From the IMG/VR virus record IMGVR_UViG_3300027917_000058, positions 1-52,168 of that record: a stretch of 52,168 nt of DNA. One strand, written 5' to 3'. Position 1 is the stretch's first letter; each line of letters opens with the position of its first letter. Of this stretch, positions 1 to 37,848 are shown piece after piece. Under the pieces are notes generated by a model. The model worked only from the letters and a program-made list of their open reading frames with translations. It did no database searches and was not told the origin of the DNA. The stretch comes from a virus. Lineage: Duplodnaviria > Caudoviricetes. A program made the translations under genes and the position numbers.

Positions 1-210
1 GGCCAGGGCCAGGGCCAGGGCGAAGACGAAGGGGAAGGGGAAGGACAGGGCCAGGGCGAAGGGGAAGGGGAAGGACAGGGCCAGGGCCAGGGCGAAGGGG
101 AAGGGGAAGGACAGGGCCAGGGCCAGGGCCAGGGCGAAGGGGAAGGGGAAGGACAGGGCCAGGGCCAGGGCGAAGGGGAAGGACAGGGCCAGGGCCAGGG
201 CCAGGGCCAG
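1..210 (+). repeat. Low-complexity coding tandem repeat (GGCCAG / GGGGAA hexamers encoding a GQ/GE linker)
   Basis: Directly visible hexamer repeats in frame with the DUF2201 ORF. Confidence 0.9.
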
Positions 211-921
211 GGGTCGAAACCTTGCACGAACCCGCTAGGGGAAGTCAGGGATGCCCCGAAAGAATCGGACGCCCCCGAAGCGGACGAAGACGATTGGAAG
301 CGGGCGATAATTGACGCGGTCAGGGCGGGCGAAATGCGGGGCAATATGCCCGGGTCGGTTCGTCGTTTCGCGGACGAAGCTACCCGACCGATTGTGGACT
401 GGCGGTCGGTCCTTCGTCGGTTCGTGCAAGACGCCGCCCGCGACGATTATGCATGGACCCGACCCAACCCCCGCTACCTTCCTGGCGGTCTTTACCTTCC
501 CGCCTTGCACGCCCCCGCAATGGGTCCCCTGGCGGTCGTTATTGACACTTCAGGGTCTTGCGACGAAGTCCTTGTGTCGCAATTCGGGGGCGAGCTTCGG
601 GGCATCTTCGAAGACTTGTCGCCCGCATCCCTGACGGTCCTTTACGCCGACTCCCGGGTTGCGGGTCGCGAGACGTTTTACCCGGGCGACTTCGTGACCC
701 TGGACCCTGTCGGCGGCGGCGGGACCGACTTCCGACCCGCCCTGGCGGAACTGGAAGACGAAGACGAAACGCCTGTCGCGGTCGTTTACCTGACCGACCT
801 ATACGGGACCTACCCGGAAGACGAACCGCCTTTTCCTGTCTTGTGGGCAACGACTTCCGACCCCGCGACCGTGTCCGAATACTACCGCCCGCCTTGGGGC
901 GAAGTCGTTGAAATACGTTGA
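1..921 (+). CDS. DUF2201-family putative metallopeptidase/VWA-like domain protein (5' truncated by window edge)
   Basis: Frame 1 is open from base 1 (GQGQGEGEG... linker) into the 334..921 ORF. It has W-RPNPRY, VVIDTSGS, GGGGTDF and YLTDLYG motifs typical of the DUF2201 C-terminal VWA domain. Confidence 0.85.
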   Translation, partial: GQGQGQGEDEGEGEGQGQGEGEGEGQGQGQGEGEGEGQGQGQGQGEGEGEGQGQGQGEGEGQGQGQGQGQGSKPCTNPLGEVRDAPKESDAPEADEDDWKRAIIDAVRAGEMRGNMPGSVRRFADEATRPIVDWRSVLRRFVQDAARDDYAWTRPNPRYLPGGLYLPALHAPAMGPLAVVIDTSGSCDEVLVSQFGGELRGIFEDLSPASLTVLYADSRVAGRETFYPGDFVTLDPVGGGGTDFRPALAELEDEDETPVAVVYLTDLYGTYPEDEPPFPVLWATTSDPATVSEYYRPPWGEVVEIR

Positions 922-980: not shown

Positions 981-1208
981 TTCCTGGCCCCTGGACGCCT
1001 GACAACGCCTTCCCGGGACCGCCCCCGCCCCTGGACCCCCGCCCCTGGCAACGTGTCGCGGGGCGTTTCCTGGCCCCTGGACGCCCGACAACGCCTTGGG
1101 GGCATCCCTGGCCAGGGCGAACCCCCGACAAGACATCGCGATGCCGCTATATAGTACTTCAACTATGAAGGCGCGGGGGCTTTTCGGCTCGATCCACCGT
1201 ACTCATCC

Positions 1209-3055: not shown

Positions 3056-3536
3056 ATGGCATACAGAACATCGAAGAACGGGGGGGCTCTACCGGAAATG
3101 CGGGGGCTGTACGGAGTGCTGTGTGAACCAACCGATCACGCAACTCGACAAACCCGCGAAGACCCCCTGCAAACATCTCACGGCAAGTGGTTGTGGGATC
3201 TACGAAGACCGCTTCCCCGTCTGCCGGGAATACGGATGCCTCTGGTTGTGGGGCGAAGGGAGCCTGGAAGACCGGCCCGACCGGATGGGCGCGATGCCAA
3301 CGATGTCTGACAACGGGTTGTATTTGACGCTATACCTCAACGGAGACTCGACCCCGGAACAGCTTTCCCGGGGAGCCCTGAAGTGGCTGAGACGGTACTT
3401 CAACAAGACGGGTAGGCCCGCCCTTGTACTTCATGGCGACGGGTACGGCAAAACCACGGCGATCTACCCTGACGGGACGTACAAGGAACTCGAAACCAAG
3501 TGGGTAGGAGAACTGCCCGGGAGCATGGAACCATGA
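3056..3536 (+). pseudogene. YkgJ-like (CxxCxxCC) cysteine-cluster protein, apparently frameshifted at a G7 run (3080-3086)
   Basis: CGGCTECC...C-HL...C-IYEDR..VCR motif lies in the 2988..3536 frame. The RBS-backed ATG at 3056 joins that frame only if one G is removed. Confidence 0.6.
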
Positions 3537-5678: not shown

Positions 5679-7602
5679 TGCCCACCCCCTGCGAGCGAAC
5701 CCGCCGCTTCGGCCCCTGGACCCGCTTGTTATTGATCGCCTCCAGAATCGTCTCCAGACGGACCCCTGCCAGGAAAGCCCCCTCGTGGGCTGCAAGGGCG
5801 TACACTCGGCAGTCCAGAGCTTCGGCCCGTCTCCCGGGACGCCGCATCCACACCCGCTTCATATACCCGTTGGGGCTCTGCCTCACCACAACAAGCTCTG
5901 ACGTAAGCTGCTTGAAGTACTCTTCGTCGTAGGGTTGCCTGGAAGGGAAGTGGGCGAAGCCGGGTATGGGTCCACCATCGTACTCATCTTCTGCGGGCTT
6001 CTGGATTCGGAGGTGGCTCATTACCACCGTCTTCGCTGTATCGACGCCAACCGGATAGAGCGGAACCTTGTACTTGTTTGATACCGTTGGCCGGTCCCAT
6101 ATCGGCCTTCCCTCCCCAGCGAGCCCCTTTATGGGCCAGATCCTCGCGGCCCTTCGGGTATGGCAGTACTTGTAGACGTTCTGGGACAGGAACCCGGAGT
6201 CTACCGCCGTCGAATAGACGCCCAGCATGAGACCGCTGGGATGCTTGAACTTTCGTGACAATACGTGGTCGAGTGTGTTCCAGGGTCCTCCCTCCAGTGT
6301 AGGATCACCCTCGATGCGGAGAAAATTCAGACTCCACGACTCGTAGTTGAGACCCCAGCCCACAAGCTCGACCTCCAGACGATCCGCCTGGATGTCCACG
6401 CCAGCCGTGATAAGCAGTACTCCCTCGGGCACGGGTTCCTCGGGATACACCTCACAACGCGCCAGGAGGGGGTGGGCGTCGAGCCGGTAGCCAGCTTCCT
6501 TGAAGACCTCGCCCAAGACCGTGTTGACCCACACCTGAAGACGCATCCGGTCCCCCTTCGCCCGCAGGAATCCGGCGACGATCTCCCGCCATTTCATCCA
6601 CGGGCTGAAGAGAGCGTTGATCTGGAAGCCGATGGACTTCGGATGCCGTACTCCCTTATCCTCGGGTTCCCATGCGCCCGTTTCGGCATCCACGGTCCCA
6701 TCCACCCACCGACCGTTCGCCAACATCCATGTCTTCTTACGCTCCGGGATCAGAGCCCCGCAGGAGACACAGGCGTACTCTGCCGTCTCAGGTAGGTGGC
6801 CCCCCTCTTCGTCCTTCTCCCAAATGAGTTGTGAGAAGATCAGGTATTGCTCATGGGCACAGTGAGGACAAGGCACGTAGTACCGGCGAACGACATCGCA
6901 GTCTTTGATCGCCGCCTCGATGCGGCTCAGGCCCTCCAGGGTTGGCGTCGAGAAGTATGCCTTTATCCGATTCCAGAACGTCCGCGTCCGCGCCTCTGCA
7001 AGCTCGATGGGATCCCCTTCCTGACCGGCAGACGGAGGATAGCCATCGATTTCGTCACAGAGCAGCAACCGGATCGCCCTAGAGCGGAGACCCGCAGGGG
7101 CGTTCGCCCCGGCAATCGCAAGATGCCCACCACGAAATGACTTCTGGAGAGTGGTGTTCTCTGAGCTTCTGGACTTCGATGTGGCGAAGCGATTTCTGAG
7201 TACCGGGGTCGCCTCGATCATGGGGGCGATGCGCTCTTTGGAATAGGCCTTCGCTTCCTTCTCCCCGATCTGTACCAGCAGCATGGGCGACGGGTCCTGA
7301 TGAGCGAAGTATCCCAAGATGTTGTTCAACGTCTCCGACTTCCCAACCTGGGCACACGCCTGGAAAACCACGGTCTCGATCCCCGGTTCCACGACCGCAT
7401 CCATGATGCCGACGAGATACGGCGTCCGGTCGTTCCTCCAGGGTCCCGGCTCTGCCGATGTCTCCGGGAGGTGCCTGTATCTTTCGGCCCACTCACTCAC
7501 CAGAAGCTGTTTTGGTGGCGTGAGGTGATCGATGATCGTCTCATATGCCGCCCGCCTCGCCCGCTGGCGGGACTGAAGTGGATTCAGGACTTCGGTTTCC
7601 AT
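5671..7602 (-). CDS. terL: Terminase large subunit, lambda GpA family
   Basis: PGPWRNDRTPY, AQVGKSE (Walker A), LLCDEIDGYP (Walker B), STPT, GVDIQADR and EALDCRVYA nuclease motifs. Confidence 0.97.
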   Translation of the reverse strand: METEVLNPLQSRQRARRAAYETIIDHLTPPKQLLVSEWAERYRHLPETSAEPGPWRNDRTPYLVGIMDAVVEPGIETVVFQACAQVGKSETLNNILGYFAHQDPSPMLLVQIGEKEAKAYSKERIAPMIEATPVLRNRFATSKSRSSENTTLQKSFRGGHLAIAGANAPAGLRSRAIRLLLCDEIDGYPPSAGQEGDPIELAEARTRTFWNRIKAYFSTPTLEGLSRIEAAIKDCDVVRRYYVPCPHCAHEQYLIFSQLIWEKDEEGGHLPETAEYACVSCGALIPERKKTWMLANGRWVDGTVDAETGAWEPEDKGVRHPKSIGFQINALFSPWMKWREIVAGFLRAKGDRMRLQVWVNTVLGEVFKEAGYRLDAHPLLARCEVYPEEPVPEGVLLITAGVDIQADRLEVELVGWGLNYESWSLNFLRIEGDPTLEGGPWNTLDHVLSRKFKHPSGLMLGVYSTAVDSGFLSQNVYKYCHTRRAARIWPIKGLAGEGRPIWDRPTVSNKYKVPLYPVGVDTAKTVVMSHLRIQKPAEDEYDGGPIPGFAHFPSRQPYDEEYFKQLTSELVVVRQSPNGYMKRVWMRRPGRRAEALDCRVYALAAHEGAFLAGVRLETILEAINNKRVQGPKRRVRSQGVGIG

Positions 7603-11280: not shown

Positions 11281-11447
11281 GTCACATTCCCTTCCGCCTT
11301 GGCGCGTTCGTATATCTCGTCAATCTTCCACTGGAGCCGCCTCTGCGAGATCAGGACCCGCGCTGTTGCCCGTCCAGCACGGAAACCCTGCCCCCAAGCG
11401 TAGGCAAAGAGCTTCAGATTCCTCCAGAATCTCCTGATGGTTTCCAT
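11277..11447 (-). CDS. Small hypothetical protein (56 aa, below ORF-track cut-off)
   Basis: Read by hand as METIRRFWRNLKLFAYAWG...AEGNVT*; fills the gap with an ATGA overlap. Confidence 0.5.
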   Translation of the reverse strand: METIRRFWRNLKLFAYAWGQGFRAGRATARVLISQRRLQWKIDEIYERAKAEGNVT

Positions 11448-11448
11448 C

Positions 11449-11997
11449 TCAGAACTCCATGTCAGGTACCGGCCACTCCACCTCGTCGTAGAGAGCCGTC
11501 AGGTTGACCTTGGGGAGCGTCACGGCTCCCGGGAGCTTGTAGTGGTGGAGGCCCATCTGGAGGAGCCAAAGGGCATCTGCTTCATCGTGACTATTCCCTG
11601 CGTAACCCAGACGACGAATCGCCTCGCCCACCATCACGATCTTCGTCTCCCCCTTCTTATGGCCGCCCTTTCCGCTGGCGAACTTCTTCAGCTTCGAAGG
11701 TGGCACCTCAACCAAAGGGATCTTTCCCTGATAGAACCCCAATCGGAGAACGCCACCAAGCTCCCCAATCTGGTGTGCCTTGAACCCCTTCGAAAAGGCG
11801 TAGCCCTCGATGATGACCACGTCACAATGGCTCGCCACACCCATGACTTTGGACAGGAGATCCCAGAGACGTTTCGGCCCCCGGTAGGATGACGTGATGA
11901 TCCCAGACTCCCAGCAGCTACCCAGGGCGGGCGCGGGATCGATGTTCCGCGCCCACCCCGTTGCCGTCAGCGATGGGTCAAATGCTGAAATCTTCAT
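11449..11997 (-). CDS. ruvC: RuvC-like Holliday junction resolvase
   Basis: AFDPSLTATGWA, VVIIEGY, ELGGVLRL, PSKLKKFASGKG and DEADAL contain the acidic catalytic residues. Confidence 0.9.
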   Translation of the reverse strand: MKISAFDPSLTATGWARNIDPAPALGSCWESGIITSSYRGPKRLWDLLSKVMGVASHCDVVIIEGYAFSKGFKAHQIGELGGVLRLGFYQGKIPLVEVPPSKLKKFASGKGGHKKGETKIVMVGEAIRRLGYAGNSHDEADALWLLQMGLHHYKLPGAVTLPKVNLTALYDEVEWPVPDMEF

Positions 11998-12452
11998 GCG
12001 ACGATCTTGGATACCCTGGCCTCTAGTTCAATGACCTCATCCTCCAACCCCAGGACTGCGGCGATGGAGCGGAGCCGTGCAATGGAAGCCTTGATTCTCC
12101 CTACCTCCGTCACCATCACGGCGCGAGCCTTGTCCAGATCATTCTGACAGGTAAGGATGCTGACGTACCCCTGCTCACGCTCACCAGCCCCCGGGTCCCG
12201 CACGTATGCGGGGGCCTTCAACACCCTGGTTTCCTCGACCACAACAAGGCTCACCTTACGAATGATCCTTCTGGCCTGATCGAGTCTATGCTGATGAGCA
12301 GCATGGGCGTCATCCCATTCAAACTCCCCGTGGAGTGGGCTGTCTGGGTCCTGGGCATCAGCGACAACGATCTCCGGGGTCAACGTCCCGTTCGCCCTGA
12401 GTAGGCCTTCCAAATGAGCGGCGATCATATCCCTCTTCGCTTCACCATTCAT
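11994..12452 (-). CDS. Conserved phage protein; putative accessory subunit of the RAMP/repeat-array system
   Basis: LTPEIVV..A.DPDSPLH..FEWDD..AA..HRL.QAR..IR motif; start overlaps the stop of the RAMP-like gene (TGATG). Confidence 0.75.
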   Translation of the reverse strand: MNGEAKRDMIAAHLEGLLRANGTLTPEIVVADAQDPDSPLHGEFEWDDAHAAHQHRLDQARRIIRKVSLVVVEETRVLKAPAYVRDPGAGEREQGYVSILTCQNDLDKARAVMVTEVGRIKASIARLRSIAAVLGLEDEVIELEARVSKIVA

Positions 12453-13228
12453 CAGGACGCCACCTTGAAGCCCCGACGCTTGACTTCAGCGTTGAAGAAC
12501 TCTAGCAGAGCTTCGGTTTCATGGTCGAAGGGCGTGGGGTTTTCCAGACCCGTATCCTGGGCCTCGCGTCCCCCCATCTTCTTAATCCTCGCGACCTCCG
12601 CATCCTCCTCCGCGTCAGCGATACGGAACTGACCGAAAGAGCCCTTCCCCTTCTCTGGCCGGTAGTCGCCAAGCCCTACCAGCATACCAGAAGCCGCGAT
12701 CAGTCTCGCGACCGTTTCAGCATTGAGGTTGGGGGTCACAAAACGAACGTGAAAGCGGGCACACCATTGGGGTAGAATTGCGCGAGTCCTGATGTCTGGC
12801 GCACGACTCTGTCCCGCCATTCGGACAACAGCCATGTGAAGCTGCGGCACTCCCCATACCGGCACCGTTGTCTCAACGACCTGCACCAGCCGCCCCAGCG
12901 CAGCCTTCGCCGCGCCGGGGACATCGACACCGGCTTGCATGATGCAGGATTTCACACCCCCACCGGGGAGGATCAAGCGTGTCTCAGCATCCTCCCCCGT
13001 CTCCCGATACACGCTGGCGCGGTACTCAGCAACGGGGTCATGCTTGAGGGTGTTTTCCTTCTCTGCGCGAGATTTCTTTTGTGATGGGAACAGTATTTCC
13101 TTCCGCACCTTCTCACTCATCGCGTTGAAGATGAGCGGGCTGGTGCCGACGATGTTTACCTCAAGGGTTTTTACCGTCAGTTCCAGAACGTCCATCGTCG
13201 TCGTATCCTTCTTCTTCTTAGCTGCCAT
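12452..13228 (-). CDS. Stand-alone RAMP/Cas7-like RNA-binding protein (Vipr-like)
   Basis: N-terminal strand V-IVGTSPL, LILPGGGVKSCI (cf. Cas7/Csm3 IPGS-lKG), RTRAILPQW and C-terminal G-rich loop GLGDYRPEKGKGSFGQF; AGGAG RBS. Confidence 0.75.
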   Translation of the reverse strand: MAAKKKKDTTTMDVLELTVKTLEVNIVGTSPLIFNAMSEKVRKEILFPSQKKSRAEKENTLKHDPVAEYRASVYRETGEDAETRLILPGGGVKSCIMQAGVDVPGAAKAALGRLVQVVETTVPVWGVPQLHMAVVRMAGQSRAPDIRTRAILPQWCARFHVRFVTPNLNAETVARLIAASGMLVGLGDYRPEKGKGSFGQFRIADAEEDAEVARIKKMGGREAQDTGLENPTPFDHETEALLEFFNAEVKRRGFKVAS

Positions 13229-13260
13229 TTTCCTAGCTCCTAGCGTTTGTGTGAAAAAAA

Positions 13261-13772
13261 TGCCATGCCGTGCCCACCCGATCCTTTCCCGGTTCGTCCA
13301 CTCCTTTCCCGGCCACTCCCAGACCGCCCCTCCAATCCGTTCCGTTCCACAATCGATCCCGGCCCTTCCGGTCCCATCATCCCTCGCCGTCCCACGCCAT
13401 CCACTCCGCGTCTGCGTTACCGATCCAGTGCGATCCTTCCAGTTCTAGCCTTTTCAGGCCACCCCCTTCCGTTCCTCGTCTGCGTTGCCACTCCTGTCCC
13501 TTCCAGGCCCAGGCGTCCCACGACCCCCCGCGACTGCGTTGCCTCTCCTCATCGCGCCACGCCATTCCCTTCCCGTCTGCTCCGCATCCCCGCCTCGCCG
13601 CTGTACTACTGCCCTTTCGCGCCAAGCCCTGTCAGACCACTCCTCGCCTGATCGTGCCACTCCCGTCTGAGTCTGCTTCGTCTTGCCTCGCCAAACCGCT
13701 CCCGATCACGCCCGCCCTTTCCCGGCCCCGTACAGCCTCTCCCCTCCGTTCCTTGCCTATCCCTGCCCAGAC
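13261..13772 (-). ncRNA. Pentamer-periodic (GGH-NN)n array; putative multi-unit guide RNA locus
   Basis: Plus strand parses as [DCC NN]n with 5-nt period. Anchors GTCTGC/GACTGC/GACCGC/TACTGC at 13322, 13410, 13478, 13532, 13575, 13607 and 13671. Ends in T7 on the minus strand (13254-13260). The repeat is seen; RNA status is inferred. Confidence 0.75.
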
Positions 13773-14537
13773 CTACTCTTCGTCTTCGAAGAGGGGAAGC
13801 TGATGTCGGTATGTAACCCGGGAACCGATCTCCACCACCCGCTGGAGTTCCATCATCTCGCGGAATACCCGGGGGCCGAAGATTACCGTCTCGTCGTAGA
13901 AGCCGGTGAAGTCTGGCTTCACCATTCTTCCATCACTCCCGACCTGACGGAGTTCGTGGTAGAGGGCGAAGACTCGCTGGAGAGGATTGAGTGTCTTCCA
14001 GTGGTGATAGTTGATCGCGACGGCAGCGACCTTCCCTTCCAGCAGGTATCGGACCCACAGCGGAAGGCTCTTGACGTTGCCCCTGACGGTCTTCCCGCCC
14101 TGGACCCACTTCGCCTTGTTCCTCCAAAGGAAGACAACGTCTCTGGGTGAGACGGTGATCCGCTTGCAGCCCTTCGCCAGAATCTCAGCCATCGAGTGAA
14201 GCCGGTCGGACTCACAGTACTCCTCGTCTTCCTTCCCGGGCCACTCCTCTGGCGGCGTGAATTGCGGGTGGACATCGATGAGTTGGATCAGACCGTTCAC
14301 CGTGGCGTCATGCCCCAGGATGTCAGCCTTCTTCAACTCCGTGTAAACCTCCTCCGCAGTCTTCTTGTCATCTGCGGACGGGGTGGGAGGGACGTACTCC
14401 GGTTGGTCGGGTTCGCCGTCTTCCTCCGGTGGGGCTCCGGTGTCCAGACCCTCTACTTCCGCTTCGACCCCTTCTGCCTCCCTGATCGCTACCTCGGCAA
14501 GGGTTTCCTCTTTGGATGCTGCAACTGTGACCGCCAT
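13773..14537 (-). CDS. Phage metallopeptidase-like domain protein with acidic N-terminus
   Basis: FLW...GKTVRG.VK, W..L...QR..ALYHELRQV and PDF.GF.DE...FG resemble the putative phage metallopeptidase family. Confidence 0.65.
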   Translation of the reverse strand: MAVTVAASKEETLAEVAIREAEGVEAEVEGLDTGAPPEEDGEPDQPEYVPPTPSADDKKTAEEVYTELKKADILGHDATVNGLIQLIDVHPQFTPPEEWPGKEDEEYCESDRLHSMAEILAKGCKRITVSPRDVVFLWRNKAKWVQGGKTVRGNVKSLPLWVRYLLEGKVAAVAINYHHWKTLNPLQRVFALYHELRQVGSDGRMVKPDFTGFYDETVIFGPRVFREMMELQRVVEIGSRVTYRHQLPLFEDEE

Positions 14538-14556
14538 TGTTCGAACTCCTCGTCTG

Positions 14557-14739
14557 TTAAAGAAAAGATGGGCTTGATCCGGTCAACCGCCCTACCGCTC
14601 TCTTGATCGTGATGACACGAGCCATGAGATCGCGATCAATCCATTGCCGCAGAACCCATCGCTTGATGCGTCTGGACGGCAGCGGAGTGGGGGATGACCG
14701 GCGCGGTGGCTCAGTCCGCGTATCGATGACGGGCACCAT
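14557..14739 (-). CDS. Small hypothetical protein
   Basis: ATG with upstream AAGGG; fills the gap. Confidence 0.3.
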   Translation of the reverse strand: MVPVIDTRTEPPRRSSPTPLPSRRIKRWVLRQWIDRDLMARVITIKRAVGRLTGSSPSFL

Positions 14740-35330: not shown

Positions 35331-37848
35331 CTACCGCCTCCAGAACGAAGGTGACTTCCAAATCACCAATCTCCGGGGATGATCTAGGGAACTCCGCAGT
35401 CGGACCCATGCGTCCGATGCGGCACGGAATCACGTAAGTCCCGTAAGCATAATAGGTTCTGGACGTGCTTCCGGTGAGTGAAATCGAGCCGTCCGCATTG
35501 TAGGTGCAGGGGAGGAAGTCCCATGTGAACTGATCCTTCCAGATCGCCACATAGGTCGCCTCATCGAAACGGCGTCCATCGGTGTCCACCGAAGATGCCG
35601 GGATCGAGCTTGCTCCGCTGGTGAGATCCACATCGAGCCTCGCCGCATCCATCCAGAGCGGAACGCCCCATCGGCTCGGCTGCTCCTCCCAGATCAGTGC
35701 ATGGAGATGTCCGACTTCCCGCGATGTGGGCAAGGTGACGTTGAAGCTGATCCGTTCGTATGGGATCTCACGCAGGGAGATGCGTTGCTCGGTATCGTCC
35801 CGCGCTCGGATCAGGTCCGATGGATGGACCCATTCCTCTTCCACATCGCCGTTTGGAGGGGCCGGGAAGAAGACCGGAGTGGAGAGTGCATCTTCGGTTA
35901 TCGGCGTGCAAGGACCATCAGCGGGAGGTGCATACGGATCGGCTGGCGCATAGTTGTAGAGGTCTTCAATCCCCTCATCCCTGAGTGCCTGATAATTGAG
36001 TCCGAAGAAGACGAACCCGGAACTGATTTGTCCCTGTGCAAGCTGCTCATGCCACCACCCGGGCTTGCCGCAGTCGGTCAGGCAGTCGAAGGTTTCATCG
36101 ATGTCCCACTCATCCTCTGGCTTGCTGGTTAGGGCGAAATCCATACTGCCTTCAAGGACAGAATAGAAAAGTGGAGACAATGTGATTTTGCCACGGACGC
36201 GGGTTGTGTTGGTCGCCACATTCCTCTGGACCCAGAGCAATAGGGAGTACCAGTGCATCATGCCCAGGGTCACATACCACGAGGGGTCCCCAATGGGCTG
36301 ACCATAGATTGGAACCTCCACTCTGGAGCCGATGTATGCGATTTCCTCTGGGCCATAAACGACCCTGCTGGTGTAGTAAACACAATCTTCAAAGGTTGCC
36401 CTCAACATCAAACGGGCGTAATGCCCACCCGAAATACCGTCAGTATTCCCGAAACTCAGCCCCAAACCAACACCCTTTTGATCGCCCGTTTCCGCATATC
36501 CCTGGAAAACCCCCAATCCGCCCGTCATCATCTCGCTGTCCCGCCCAGGCCAGCCGCAGTAGCACCCATACCCCTGGACGGAGCCGGTCATAATGAACGA
36601 GCCCATGCCATCGGCCTCGGGGTCAACGATGGCTGATGGCAGTTGCGCCCCGTTAAGCCCCGCCCGAGAGGTGCCTTCCGCCCAACCCAGATAACCGCCA
36701 AACTTTGAATCAGCCCAACGCCTCTCAAGACGCTGATCCTCCGCTGATGTCATCCCGCCGATGATGAGGGAATATTCGCTCCAGCTATTGTTGTTGTCTT
36801 GGAACGCAGCCCGCACCATGAAGAAGAAACCGGCTTCAAGGTTGTTGAAGGTATAGGTGTACTGCTCGGCGGGATCGGTCGTGGTATAGCTCTCGATGGG
36901 ATTCGTCCAGATGCCTCCCAGCGGGATCATCTCGTACTTTGTCGCTTGCCAATCTCGGGGGGTTGGATGCTCGTAGGTGTCCAACGTGACGGTCACGGAG
37001 TTCTGAGTGAGTGCCGTCACGGAGATCCGGGGTCGGTAAGGCTGATCGGCATCTTGGACCGTGAAGTAAGCATGGTCATGGAGCGAGTCGCCCTCCCCAT
37101 CATTCGACCAGACCTCGACCTCGTAATCATCTTCAGCGAACCCGGAGAGATCCCAGGCATAAGGGCTCGTGTCATCCGTGAACAATGGGGTCCATGAACC
37201 GGCACCCACCGCCCGATATTGAGCGTTGTATGTGAGGGGATCATCATCCGGGTCAACGGACGGCTCCCAGGTCAGATCATGGCTCGATTTGTCCCATTCC
37301 TGACCGTCGTATGGTGCGGTGATCGTCGGGGCGGTCGGACGCCCATTGTGGATCGTGAACTCGACAGCAACGACCTGGGAGGAGTATCCCACCGTCTCCG
37401 CCCAGATTTCGAAGTCGTAATCGCCATCCGTGAGCCCACTGACATCGTAGTCGTAGACACTGTTGTAGAGGGCATCCGTGAAGATGGCCGTCCAGGCGGT
37501 GTCGGTCGTGAGCTTCAGCCGCGCCGTATACCAGATCGTCCCTTCCAGCGGGTCGGTGGATTCGTCATATGTGACGTAGAGCGTTTCGCTGACGATCTGG
37601 TCATCGTAAGGGACGATGAGGTTGGGTGCGGTGGGCGACGGCTCCGTGATGAGGACTACCCGGCCCAGCATCGTGACGCGAAGGTCGTTTTCCGCGAACT
37701 GCCCCGCCGCTTGCCGCCCTGCCTGAGTAACCCGAACGTCAGCCCCCTCCTGGGTAACGGCCTGACGCCCCGCTTGGGTGACGCGAACGTCGGCGTCCTC
37801 CTGGGTCGGGGCCTGACGCCCCGCTTGGGTTACTCTGATGTCTGTCAT
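35323..37848 (-). CDS. Tail protein with N-terminal RVTQAGRQ repeats, FN3/Ig-like domains and a distal-tail-like C-terminus
   Basis: Repeats seen directly; PTAPTITAP..LTW..S.DPD.D.LTY FN3 motifs; EQRISLRE.P and WGVPLW in the C-terminus. Confidence 0.75.
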   Translation of the reverse strand: MTDIRVTQAGRQAPTQEDADVRVTQAGRQAVTQEGADVRVTQAGRQAAGQFAENDLRVTMLGRVVLITEPSPTAPNLIVPYDDQIVSETLYVTYDESTDPLEGTIWYTARLKLTTDTAWTAIFTDALYNSVYDYDVSGLTDGDYDFEIWAETVGYSSQVVAVEFTIHNGRPTAPTITAPYDGQEWDKSSHDLTWEPSVDPDDDPLTYNAQYRAVGAGSWTPLFTDDTSPYAWDLSGFAEDDYEVEVWSNDGEGDSLHDHAYFTVQDADQPYRPRISVTALTQNSVTVTLDTYEHPTPRDWQATKYEMIPLGGIWTNPIESYTTTDPAEQYTYTFNNLEAGFFFMVRAAFQDNNNSWSEYSLIIGGMTSAEDQRLERRWADSKFGGYLGWAEGTSRAGLNGAQLPSAIVDPEADGMGSFIMTGSVQGYGCYCGWPGRDSEMMTGGLGVFQGYAETGDQKGVGLGLSFGNTDGISGGHYARLMLRATFEDCVYYTSRVVYGPEEIAYIGSRVEVPIYGQPIGDPSWYVTLGMMHWYSLLLWVQRNVATNTTRVRGKITLSPLFYSVLEGSMDFALTSKPEDEWDIDETFDCLTDCGKPGWWHEQLAQGQISSGFVFFGLNYQALRDEGIEDLYNYAPADPYAPPADGPCTPITEDALSTPVFFPAPPNGDVEEEWVHPSDLIRARDDTEQRISLREIPYERISFNVTLPTSREVGHLHALIWEEQPSRWGVPLWMDAARLDVDLTSGASSIPASSVDTDGRRFDEATYVAIWKDQFTWDFLPCTYNADGSISLTGSTSRTYYAYGTYVIPCRIGRMGPTAEFPRSSPEIGDLEVTFVLEAVDG

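Follow-up and report, generated by a model that had tools for sequence, protein, structure and literature searches.

A probable phage-borne VIPR locus with an upstream array of pentamer repeats in an uncultured marine-sediment phage

Identification of the locus

The stretch of DNA analysed here over its full length of 52,168 nucleotides (nt), called the window below, is the virus record IMGVR_UViG_3300027917_000058, which originates from a marine-sediment metagenome. It carries on its minus strand a gene for a RAMP protein of 258 amino acids (aa), a 152-aa accessory gene coupled to it and an upstream array of GG-containing pentamers. We read this locus, with a probability of about 90%, as a phage-borne VIPR system in which an array of several candidate vrRNA guides lies ahead of the genes for a Vipr RAMP protein and a translationally coupled accessory protein. 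VIPR (Viral Interference Programmable Repeat) is a CRISPR-like RNA-guided silencer that was described in 2026 (10.64898/2026.04.26.720920). Since the system is already in print, the locus is a further member of a published kind and not a new kind. A preliminary description made from the letters of this DNA had pointed to a likeness to VIPR, which is borne out below by sequence, by fold and by the linked arrays and accessory genes of related loci. Homology, fold, contact residues, periodicity, strand-specific linkage, the junction rule and the accessory linkage were all computed directly. The subunit stoichiometry, the base flipping, the one-base-skip rule and the silencing activity used in our interpretation are carried over from the literature by analogy.

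Homology, fold and contact residues of the Vipr protein

The vipr gene (12452-13228, minus strand) was delimited as an open reading frame (ORF) and assigned by homology and predicted fold to a single-RRM RAMP protein. The motifs from which a Cas7-like protein had been proposed are all present in its translation, namely G.SPL within IVGTSPLIF (G28..P31), LPGGGVK (87-93), which starts a helix in the predicted model, and a G-rich loop within GLGDYRPEKGKGSFGQF (185-201). Searches against Pfam, NCBIfam and PHROGs returned no named family and no Cas family, the only match being phrog_4652, of unknown function.

When the single sequence was compared with all PDB sequences at E≤10, the only match was the entry "SUSP1 Vipr protein" (E=0.012). 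Using a family profile of 42 sequences, SUSP1 Vipr was retrieved at E=2.9e-5 and the next match had an E-value of 1.1. The same profile was aligned by hhalign with SUSP1 gp039, translated from the SUSP1 locus (L136), with a probability of 96% and an E-value of 4.6e-9 over 170 columns; the alignment runs from 20 to 220 in the query and from 2 to 194 in the template, which is nearly the whole SUSP1 Vipr. The 258-aa protein is a Vipr homologue.

The structure predicted with AlphaFold2 (pLDDT 86.8, pTM 0.83) gave 61 Foldseek matches at E≤1e-3, and those listed were CRISPR RAMP chains, with Csm3 first (E=6e-6). VIA-align, which is independent of Foldseek, ranked Cmr4 (Z 9.3, 156 residues aligned, root mean square deviation 3.7) and Csm3 (Z 9.1) highest; Cmr4, Csm3, Cas7-11 and Csf2 were found at Z 9.3-7.5, and CRISPR RAMP proteins made up 48 of the 50 rows listed. 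The lone RAMP/Cas7-like protein of the preliminary description is thus recovered as a Csm3/Cmr4 RAMP fold. The model contains a G-loop, G185-L-G-D188-Y189-R190-P (185-191), a thumb beta hairpin at about 129-152 that carries R149, a helical bundle at about 38-71 and additional C-terminal helices at 210-252.

In the SUSP1 structure, the repeat guanines are held by D177, W178 and R138, with R179 beside the third base (10.64898/2026.04.26.720927). In the high-confidence part of the alignment these residues correspond to D188 (D177), Y189 (W178), R149 (R138) and R190 (R179) of the window protein. D188, R190 and R149 are invariant in the 42 family members, and in a second published structure a tyrosine likewise replaces the SUSP1 tryptophan at the position equivalent to Y189 (10.64898/2026.04.26.720927).

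Organisation of the pentamer array

The candidate vrRNA array occupies 508 nt on the minus strand (13263-13770), is G-rich on the vipr strand and consists of HNNGG pentamers, which can also be written GGH/NN. Autocorrelation of G along the array peaked at lags of 5 and 10 (0.35 and 0.29). When the period-5 power of minus-strand G was calculated in 200-nt segments across the whole 52 kb, the seven highest-ranking segments all started between 13151 and 13651. The motif GGxNNGG occurs 56 times in the 511 nt of the array (about 110 per kb) versus 10 per kb elsewhere on the minus strand, an eleven-fold higher density, and the array holds seven in-register GG chains of at least 5 units versus 4.65 expected on the whole shuffled strand. 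The two bases preceding each GG show a near-even base distribution. A periodic array of about 510 nt had been noticed from the letters at this place, and both its periodicity and its position (13770-13263) are upheld; a single uniform register is not, as the parse yielded 12 in-frame NNNGG runs separated by slips of 1, 3 or 4 nt.

Clean runs, defined in the window array by a minimum of 7 GG units and of 70% GG, were five in number and 9 to 17 pentamers long. In the direction of transcription of vipr, they are U1 (13686-13770, 17 pentamers of which 15 with GG), U2 (13622-13666), U3b (13542-13586) and U4 (13488-13532), each of these three having 9 pentamers with 7 GG, and U7 (13263-13322, 11 GG among 12 pentamers). 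Between U4 and U7 lies a degenerate stretch (13337-13478; U5a, U5b and U6a-c) of runs of 3-6 pentamers with irregular slips.

Three junctions share the form YAAC-GCAGW and agree with the consensus of the family, YNNG-GCAGG, at 7 of 9 positions. CAAC-GCAGT (13533-13541) combines a 4-nt register slip with the leading pentamer of the next unit; CAAC-GCAGA (13479-13487) and TAAC-GCAGA (13411-13419) are diverged copies of the family junction. Ahead of U7, the junction is CGGT (13323-13326), identical to the last junction of one related locus, L001. After U7 the array is closed by a run of 7 T (13254-13260), 26 nt ahead of the vipr start codon, with no hairpin before it and no hit there in the terminator scan. 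The last guide could have its 3' end at this run, or the run could belong to the vipr leader; a GGAG/AGGA sequence resembling a ribosome-binding site lies between it and the vipr ORF.

A coding role of the array was considered and rejected: a 5-nt period with 4-nt slips cannot hold a reading frame, so that the array is non-coding, and the ORFs overlapping it had no Pfam match. A scan of 11400-14600 against Rfam gave only a chance snoRNA match, with no hammerhead or other ribozyme and no family for the array itself. No excess of RNA structure was detected in the array (z -1.36), 11 of 100 shuffled sequences folding equally well or better.

Arrays in related loci

The Vipr family comprised 696 proteins at E≤1e-3 in a word-indexed search and 2075 representatives at 50% identity in an exhaustive search. 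The clade has members in actinobacteriophages and in genomes of Proteobacteria, Planctomycetes and Chloroflexi. For the analysis of flanking DNA we used 116 related loci, of which 80 were viral (587 kb) and 36 were the usable ones among 37 genome loci; the latter belong mostly to Alphaproteobacteria, and also to Paraburkholderia, Planctomycetes, Actinobacteria, Chloroflexi and others. Runs were counted here under a strict definition, with no fewer than 6 GG pentamers and a GG share of 70% or more.

The proposal that homologues should be flanked by period-5 arrays was confirmed, clean pentamer runs adjoining vipr in 106 of the 116 loci. On the vipr strand 545 runs were detected, against 5 on the opposite strand, and only 1 of the 545 lay outside the three flanking zones. 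No clean run was found in the remaining 10 loci (L017, L020, L030, L041, L066, L071, L074, L117, L118 and L120). The array was located only downstream of the accessory gene in 75 of the 116 loci, and only upstream, as in the window, in 6. In 14 loci (L009, L014, L022, L024, L026, L027, L033, L047, L062, L065 and others) runs were observed between vipr and the accessory gene, which means that neither adjacency nor translational coupling of the two genes is universal. The longest array by far among the 80 viral loci is that of L040 (5443-7894), where pentamer runs extend over about 2.4 kb downstream of the vipr-vap pair.

The median run comprised 10 pentamers (interquartile range 9-12). Among the 189 junctions between adjacent clean runs, 177 were slips of 4 nt. 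A wider count recovered 223 junctions combining a 4-nt slip with GCAGG in 71 loci. Their consensus, YNNG-GCAGG, can be read as a YNNGG pentamer that shares one G with the conserved GCAGG.

A metagenome scan for closer relatives retrieved only a second assembly of the same phage (L081, 99.97% identical). Among GenBank phages, homologues at about 30% identity were listed in 31 records (25 Mycobacterium, 5 Gordonia and 1 Pseudomonas), all annotated as 'hypothetical protein'. In Mycobacterium phage Saal (L138, NC_023580), five CNNGG units, each beginning with GCAGG, are found between genes 50 and 51 (2074-2317), next to immunity and antirepressor genes. In Gordonia phage Pipp (L137, MN234179), an array (3108-3332) lies beneath the annotated coding sequence of gene 43, which may for this reason be a false gene call.

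The accessory protein

The 152-aa vap-like gene (11994-12452, minus strand) follows vipr directly and, as described from the letters, overlaps its stop codon: in the sequence TGATG the ATG shares its A with the TGA, an overlap of 1 nt. An accessory homologue was present in 106 of the 116 related loci and in all 80 viral ones, where it lay directly downstream of vipr in 79. The protein, known from its ORF, has a C-terminal helical hairpin and a conserved SPLH..FEWD motif. A match was obtained to phrog_15946, a family of unknown function, and none in Pfam, in NCBIfam or in a profile search of the PDB. Its AlphaFold2 model had a pLDDT of 84.5 and a pTM of 0.38, and the only part of the model with VIA-align matches was the C-terminal helical hairpin, which resembled generic coiled coils (Z≤5.8). 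A prediction of the Vipr-Vap complex scored 0.00, which gives no answer and is evidence neither way. In the published systems, vap1 raised protection, and DNA binding or nuclease activity is predicted for other vap proteins (10.64898/2026.04.26.720920).

Identity of the third base

Over the whole array, the base following GG was A in 29 cases, C in 16, G in 9 and T in 2 (n=56). GGA had been thought about as frequent as GGC; its use is confirmed, the equality is not, A being the commonest base. In the clean runs of the window the fractions were 0.58 for A, 0.31 for C, 0.08 for G and 0.03 for T (n=36). Because A and C alternate within single units, one Vipr must accept both.

We compared the third base in the clean runs of the 97 loci with at least 15 informative pentamers. 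The A fraction reached 0.5 or more in five of them: L131 (1.00), L001 (0.89), L069 (0.64), the window (0.58) and L070 (0.52). In the other loci with the 20 highest or the 25 lowest A fractions among the 97, it was at most 0.39. The five A-dominant loci are scattered and the closest relatives of each are of the C/T type; their pairwise common ancestors subtend 68 to 113 of the 117 tips in a midpoint-rooted FastTree phylogeny whose support was not assessed. The nearest relative of the window, L099 (53% identity), has C at 0.89 and A at 0.00. No aligned pocket residue separates the A-type from the C/T-type loci.

Relative to the GGY/NN grammar, the array has a highly non-random GG of period 5 and a third base that is not Y. 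The discovery preprint allows 'a related consensus' and NNNGG repeats (10.64898/2026.04.26.720920), so that the array fits the wider definition of VIPR and not the strict one. The caller of an October 2026 preprint demands GG[C/T]NN (10.64898/2026.10.15.759431). GGA, GGR and GGN are not mentioned in the main text of 10.64898/2026.04.26.720927, nor GGA in that of 10.64898/2026.10.15.759431, a comparison that covered these two texts and did not extend to the discovery preprint. This clade and the GGA form could already figure in the published assignment of types I-VII, in the repeat logos for each type (fig. S17) or in the list of 667 systems.

Comparison with characterised systems

The locus resembles the type II systems of SUSP1 and Pseudomonas fulva in that vipr is followed by a small accessory gene on the same strand and flanked by non-coding pentamer arrays in a phage (10.64898/2026.04.26.720920, 10.64898/2026.04.26.720927). 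With SUSP1 it shares a homologous Vipr, the G-loop (GDWRP in SUSP1, GDYRP in the window), the thumb arginine and the repeat grammar of GG, one base and NN. There are also differences from SUSP1. The two Viprs are about 25% identical over the 170 aligned columns, and the window protein is longer (258 versus 195 aa) and carries additional helices in its C-terminal part. At the third base, the window has A more often than C and SUSP1 has T or C, the window array is found upstream of vipr only, and the accessory protein has no sequence relation to vap1. Array design also differs: units of the window abut, with junctions of 4 or 9 nt, whereas in SUSP1 each unit is followed by a tail of about 35-50 nt and by spacer DNA. 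The parser was checked on SUSP1, where it recovered the published vrRNA tracts, one upstream and three downstream, each with a long non-repeat tail. The conserved structured 3' tail (pseudoknot) that each vrRNA carries in type II is absent from the window array, which has neither tails nor excess structure. Its units being tailless, the window is not SUSP1-like in array design.

Another parallel may be the 'staggered' vrRNA arrays described in the text of the legend to fig. S18 (10.64898/2026.04.26.720920), as units of the clade have about 10 pentamers and their ends overlap by one base. The junctions of the window have diverged (GCAGW) from those of its relatives. In the text of the discovery preprint, staggered arrays are not among the architectures confirmed by small-RNA sequencing (10.64898/2026.04.26.720920).

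The window protein shares its RRM/RAMP fold, including the G-loop and the thumb hairpin, with the backbone subunits of the Cas7 family (Csm3, Cmr4, Csf2), which VIA-align matched at Z 7.5-9.3 over 122-165 residues. Cas7 family subunits form polymers on a guide RNA, each covering a fixed number of bases. For Vipr this step would measure 5 nt and include three flipped bases, versus 6 nt with one in Cas7 (10.64898/2026.04.26.720927). Unlike class 1 CRISPR-Cas systems, the window has no CRISPR array, no Cas1 and no Pfam RAMP match, and unlike Cas7 proteins the window protein has no detectable sequence similarity to Cas7 chains of the PDB or to Pfam RAMPs.

Proposed mechanism and alternative explanations

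In the VIPR reading, transcription of the array would follow the vipr strand and would probably be read-through from the upstream gene, given that the array begins 2 nt past the stop codon of this gene. The transcript would be divided at the register-breaking junctions into guides of about 9-17 pentamers, and Vipr protomers would, by analogy with published complexes, polymerise with one protomer per pentamer. The first guanine would be held by D188 of the G-loop and N35 of strand 1, the second by R149 of the thumb and Y189 of the G-loop, and the third base by R190 and helix 1. With GG and the third base flipped out, NN would be free to pair with double-stranded DNA, every third target base being skipped. 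As a result, either a competing mobile element or the host would be silenced.

Several results weigh against this picture. The mostly adenine third base clashes with the published pocket, which sterically excludes purines at this position (10.64898/2026.04.26.720927). H17 of SUSP1 aligns with the near-invariant N35 and not with a histidine, and the helix-1 pocket residues E71/M72, to which the exclusion of purines is ascribed, align with G90/G91 only in a segment of low confidence, so that this correspondence is a lead only. The array is more degenerate than those of the relatives, with 72 of its 99 pentamer slots ending in GG and only 7 of its 12 slips having the canonical 4 nt. No promoter-like site was found ahead of it, the sole minus-strand match of the promoter scan (13255-13227) lying after the array. 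For the accessory protein, Foldseek returned nothing at E≤1e-3 and no informative fold match, and hhalign detected no similarity to SUSP1 vap1 (probability 0.4%). No RNA run was listed among the sequencing runs containing the window sequence, which were only two DNA runs from one marine-sediment sample, its possible source. Finally, when targets obeying the one-base-skip rule were searched within the window, the best matches of U1, U2, U3b, U4 and U7 equalled those of controls with shuffled order.

The target search was also blank elsewhere. In the 80 related viral loci (587 kb), one-base-skip targets were no better than shuffled controls. An exact scan of IMG/VR with all 12 NN of U7 gave 0 matches. 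Restricting the query to the last 8 or the first 8 NN of U7 yielded 8 and 9 matches, respectively, which extended over only 16-20 of 24 bases, the level expected by chance. These scans of public data accepted exact matches only, versus an NN match of at least 80% in the published criterion, and their blank result says little.

The missing target, together with the state of the array, could also mean that the locus is a VIPR system in decay, in which the protein pair is intact, the array has drifted and few or none of its units are still working guides. The 27 of 99 slots without GG, the 5 of 12 slips that are irregular (1 or 3 nt), the runs of only 3-6 pentamers in 13478-13337 and the loss from the GCAGW/YAAC junctions of both guanines that are near-invariant in relatives (YNNG-GCAGG) would all agree with such a drift. 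Yet five units keep 7-15 GG pentamers, and working vrRNAs are reported to have 9-16 repeats, with frequent internal degeneracy (10.64898/2026.04.26.720920); the five units speak against decay because they lie within these bounds. Moreover, vipr and vap are full-length with every family-invariant residue in place, and the 99.97% identity of the second assembly gives no sign of ongoing loss. We therefore regard decay as unlikely. Much less probable still is a role of the tract as a regulatory element at the DNA or RNA level, formed of two-tetrad G-quadruplexes (GG-N3) or of protein-binding iterons, with the RAMP-like protein unrelated in role. Repeats of GG-N3-GG can in principle form G-quadruplexes, and the tract is placed directly upstream of a gene, where a leader or operator might be. 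Such an element would hardly account for relatives in which the tract is mostly downstream of the accessory gene (75 of 116 downstream only), out of leader position, nor for the strict strand bias (545 to 5) and the conserved unit length (median 10) and junction rule. The two positions before each GG are variable, as those of guides would be, and the guanine-binding residues of Vipr are conserved.

The structural matches, the best of which are all Cas7-family subunits of type III, IV and I complexes, would also suit a reading in which the protein is no Vipr but a stray Cas7/Csm3, derived from a CRISPR-Cas system that is degraded or minimal, or acting as a phage decoy of such a system. To this we give the least credence, as the sequence matches Vipr and not any Cas7 among the PDB chains, no Cas family is assigned to it by Pfam or NCBIfam, and the complete record contains no Cas1, no Pfam RAMP match and no CRISPR-type repeat. 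The preliminary description had stated that cas1, cas2, cas3, cas5, cas6 and CRISPR repeats were all absent. In the whole record, the models for Cas1 (PF01867) and Pfam RAMP (PF03787) were unmatched, and no CRISPR-like repeat appeared in the Tandem Repeats Finder output for the window; the statement holds to that extent, the Cas2, Cas3, Cas5 and Cas6 models not having been run separately.

Within the VIPR reading, we tentatively add a proposal against which the odds still stand, namely that this clade reads a looser grammar. The third-base pocket would tolerate adenine. Guides would have their boundaries set not by tails, ribozymes or promoters of their own but by the conserved register-breaking junction (YNNG-GCAGG in the family, YAAC-GCAGW in the window), perhaps as a processing site or as an interruption of the protein filament.

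Genomic context

The record is that of a complete tailed phage (CheckV completeness 100%) and encodes a terminase, a portal, a protease, a tape measure and tail proteins. All genes of the locus are on the minus strand. Upstream of the array lies a gene with a phage metallopeptidase domain (13773-14537; PF18894, E=6e-9), whose stop codon is 2 nt away from the array start. On the other side, a RuvC-like resolvase gene (11449-11997; phrog_159, E=1.5e-30) overlaps the stop of the accessory gene by 4 nt, so that vipr, the accessory gene and the resolvase gene form a chain of overlapping stops and starts over 11449-12452 (1 nt, then 4 nt). None of the 80 viral relatives has a RuvC-like or a metallopeptidase-like neighbour near vipr.

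Other repeats were observed in the window. Positions 1-212 consist of a tandem repeat of 6-nt period (GGCCAG, 35 copies) with a 36-nt super-period, inside an ORF (1-921, plus strand) that runs off the start of the record. At 1208-1324, a 17-nt unit (CTGGCGGGTACTTGTTT) is repeated 6.7 times, can also be read with periods of 34 and 51, and looks like an iteron or an operator. A weak NNNGG chain (983-1044, minus strand, 9 of 13 units) over a 14-nt tandem repeat may be due to chance on a G-rich strand or be a stray guide-like tract, and short NNNGG chains at 6091-6137 and 37692-37733 look like background.

Significance for the VIPR family

Experiments on VIPR have so far dealt with SUSP1-like (type II) systems and a few others. 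The present locus, found in an uncultured phage of marine sediment, is a complete and well-delimited example from a Vipr clade that is very large and diverse. Three of its features could serve to test open points of the published model. The adenine-rich third position bears on whether the pocket excludes purines in all Viprs, and the abutting units bear on how such units become guides. The accessory protein belongs to a conserved family with no recognisable domain or fold match. Array finders demanding GG[C/T]NN would under-call such arrays. If the looser grammar proposed above is true, the identity of the third base would be evolvable, and sets of guides could be orthogonal, closed to the Vipr of a competitor or to the decoy vrRNAs of a satellite.

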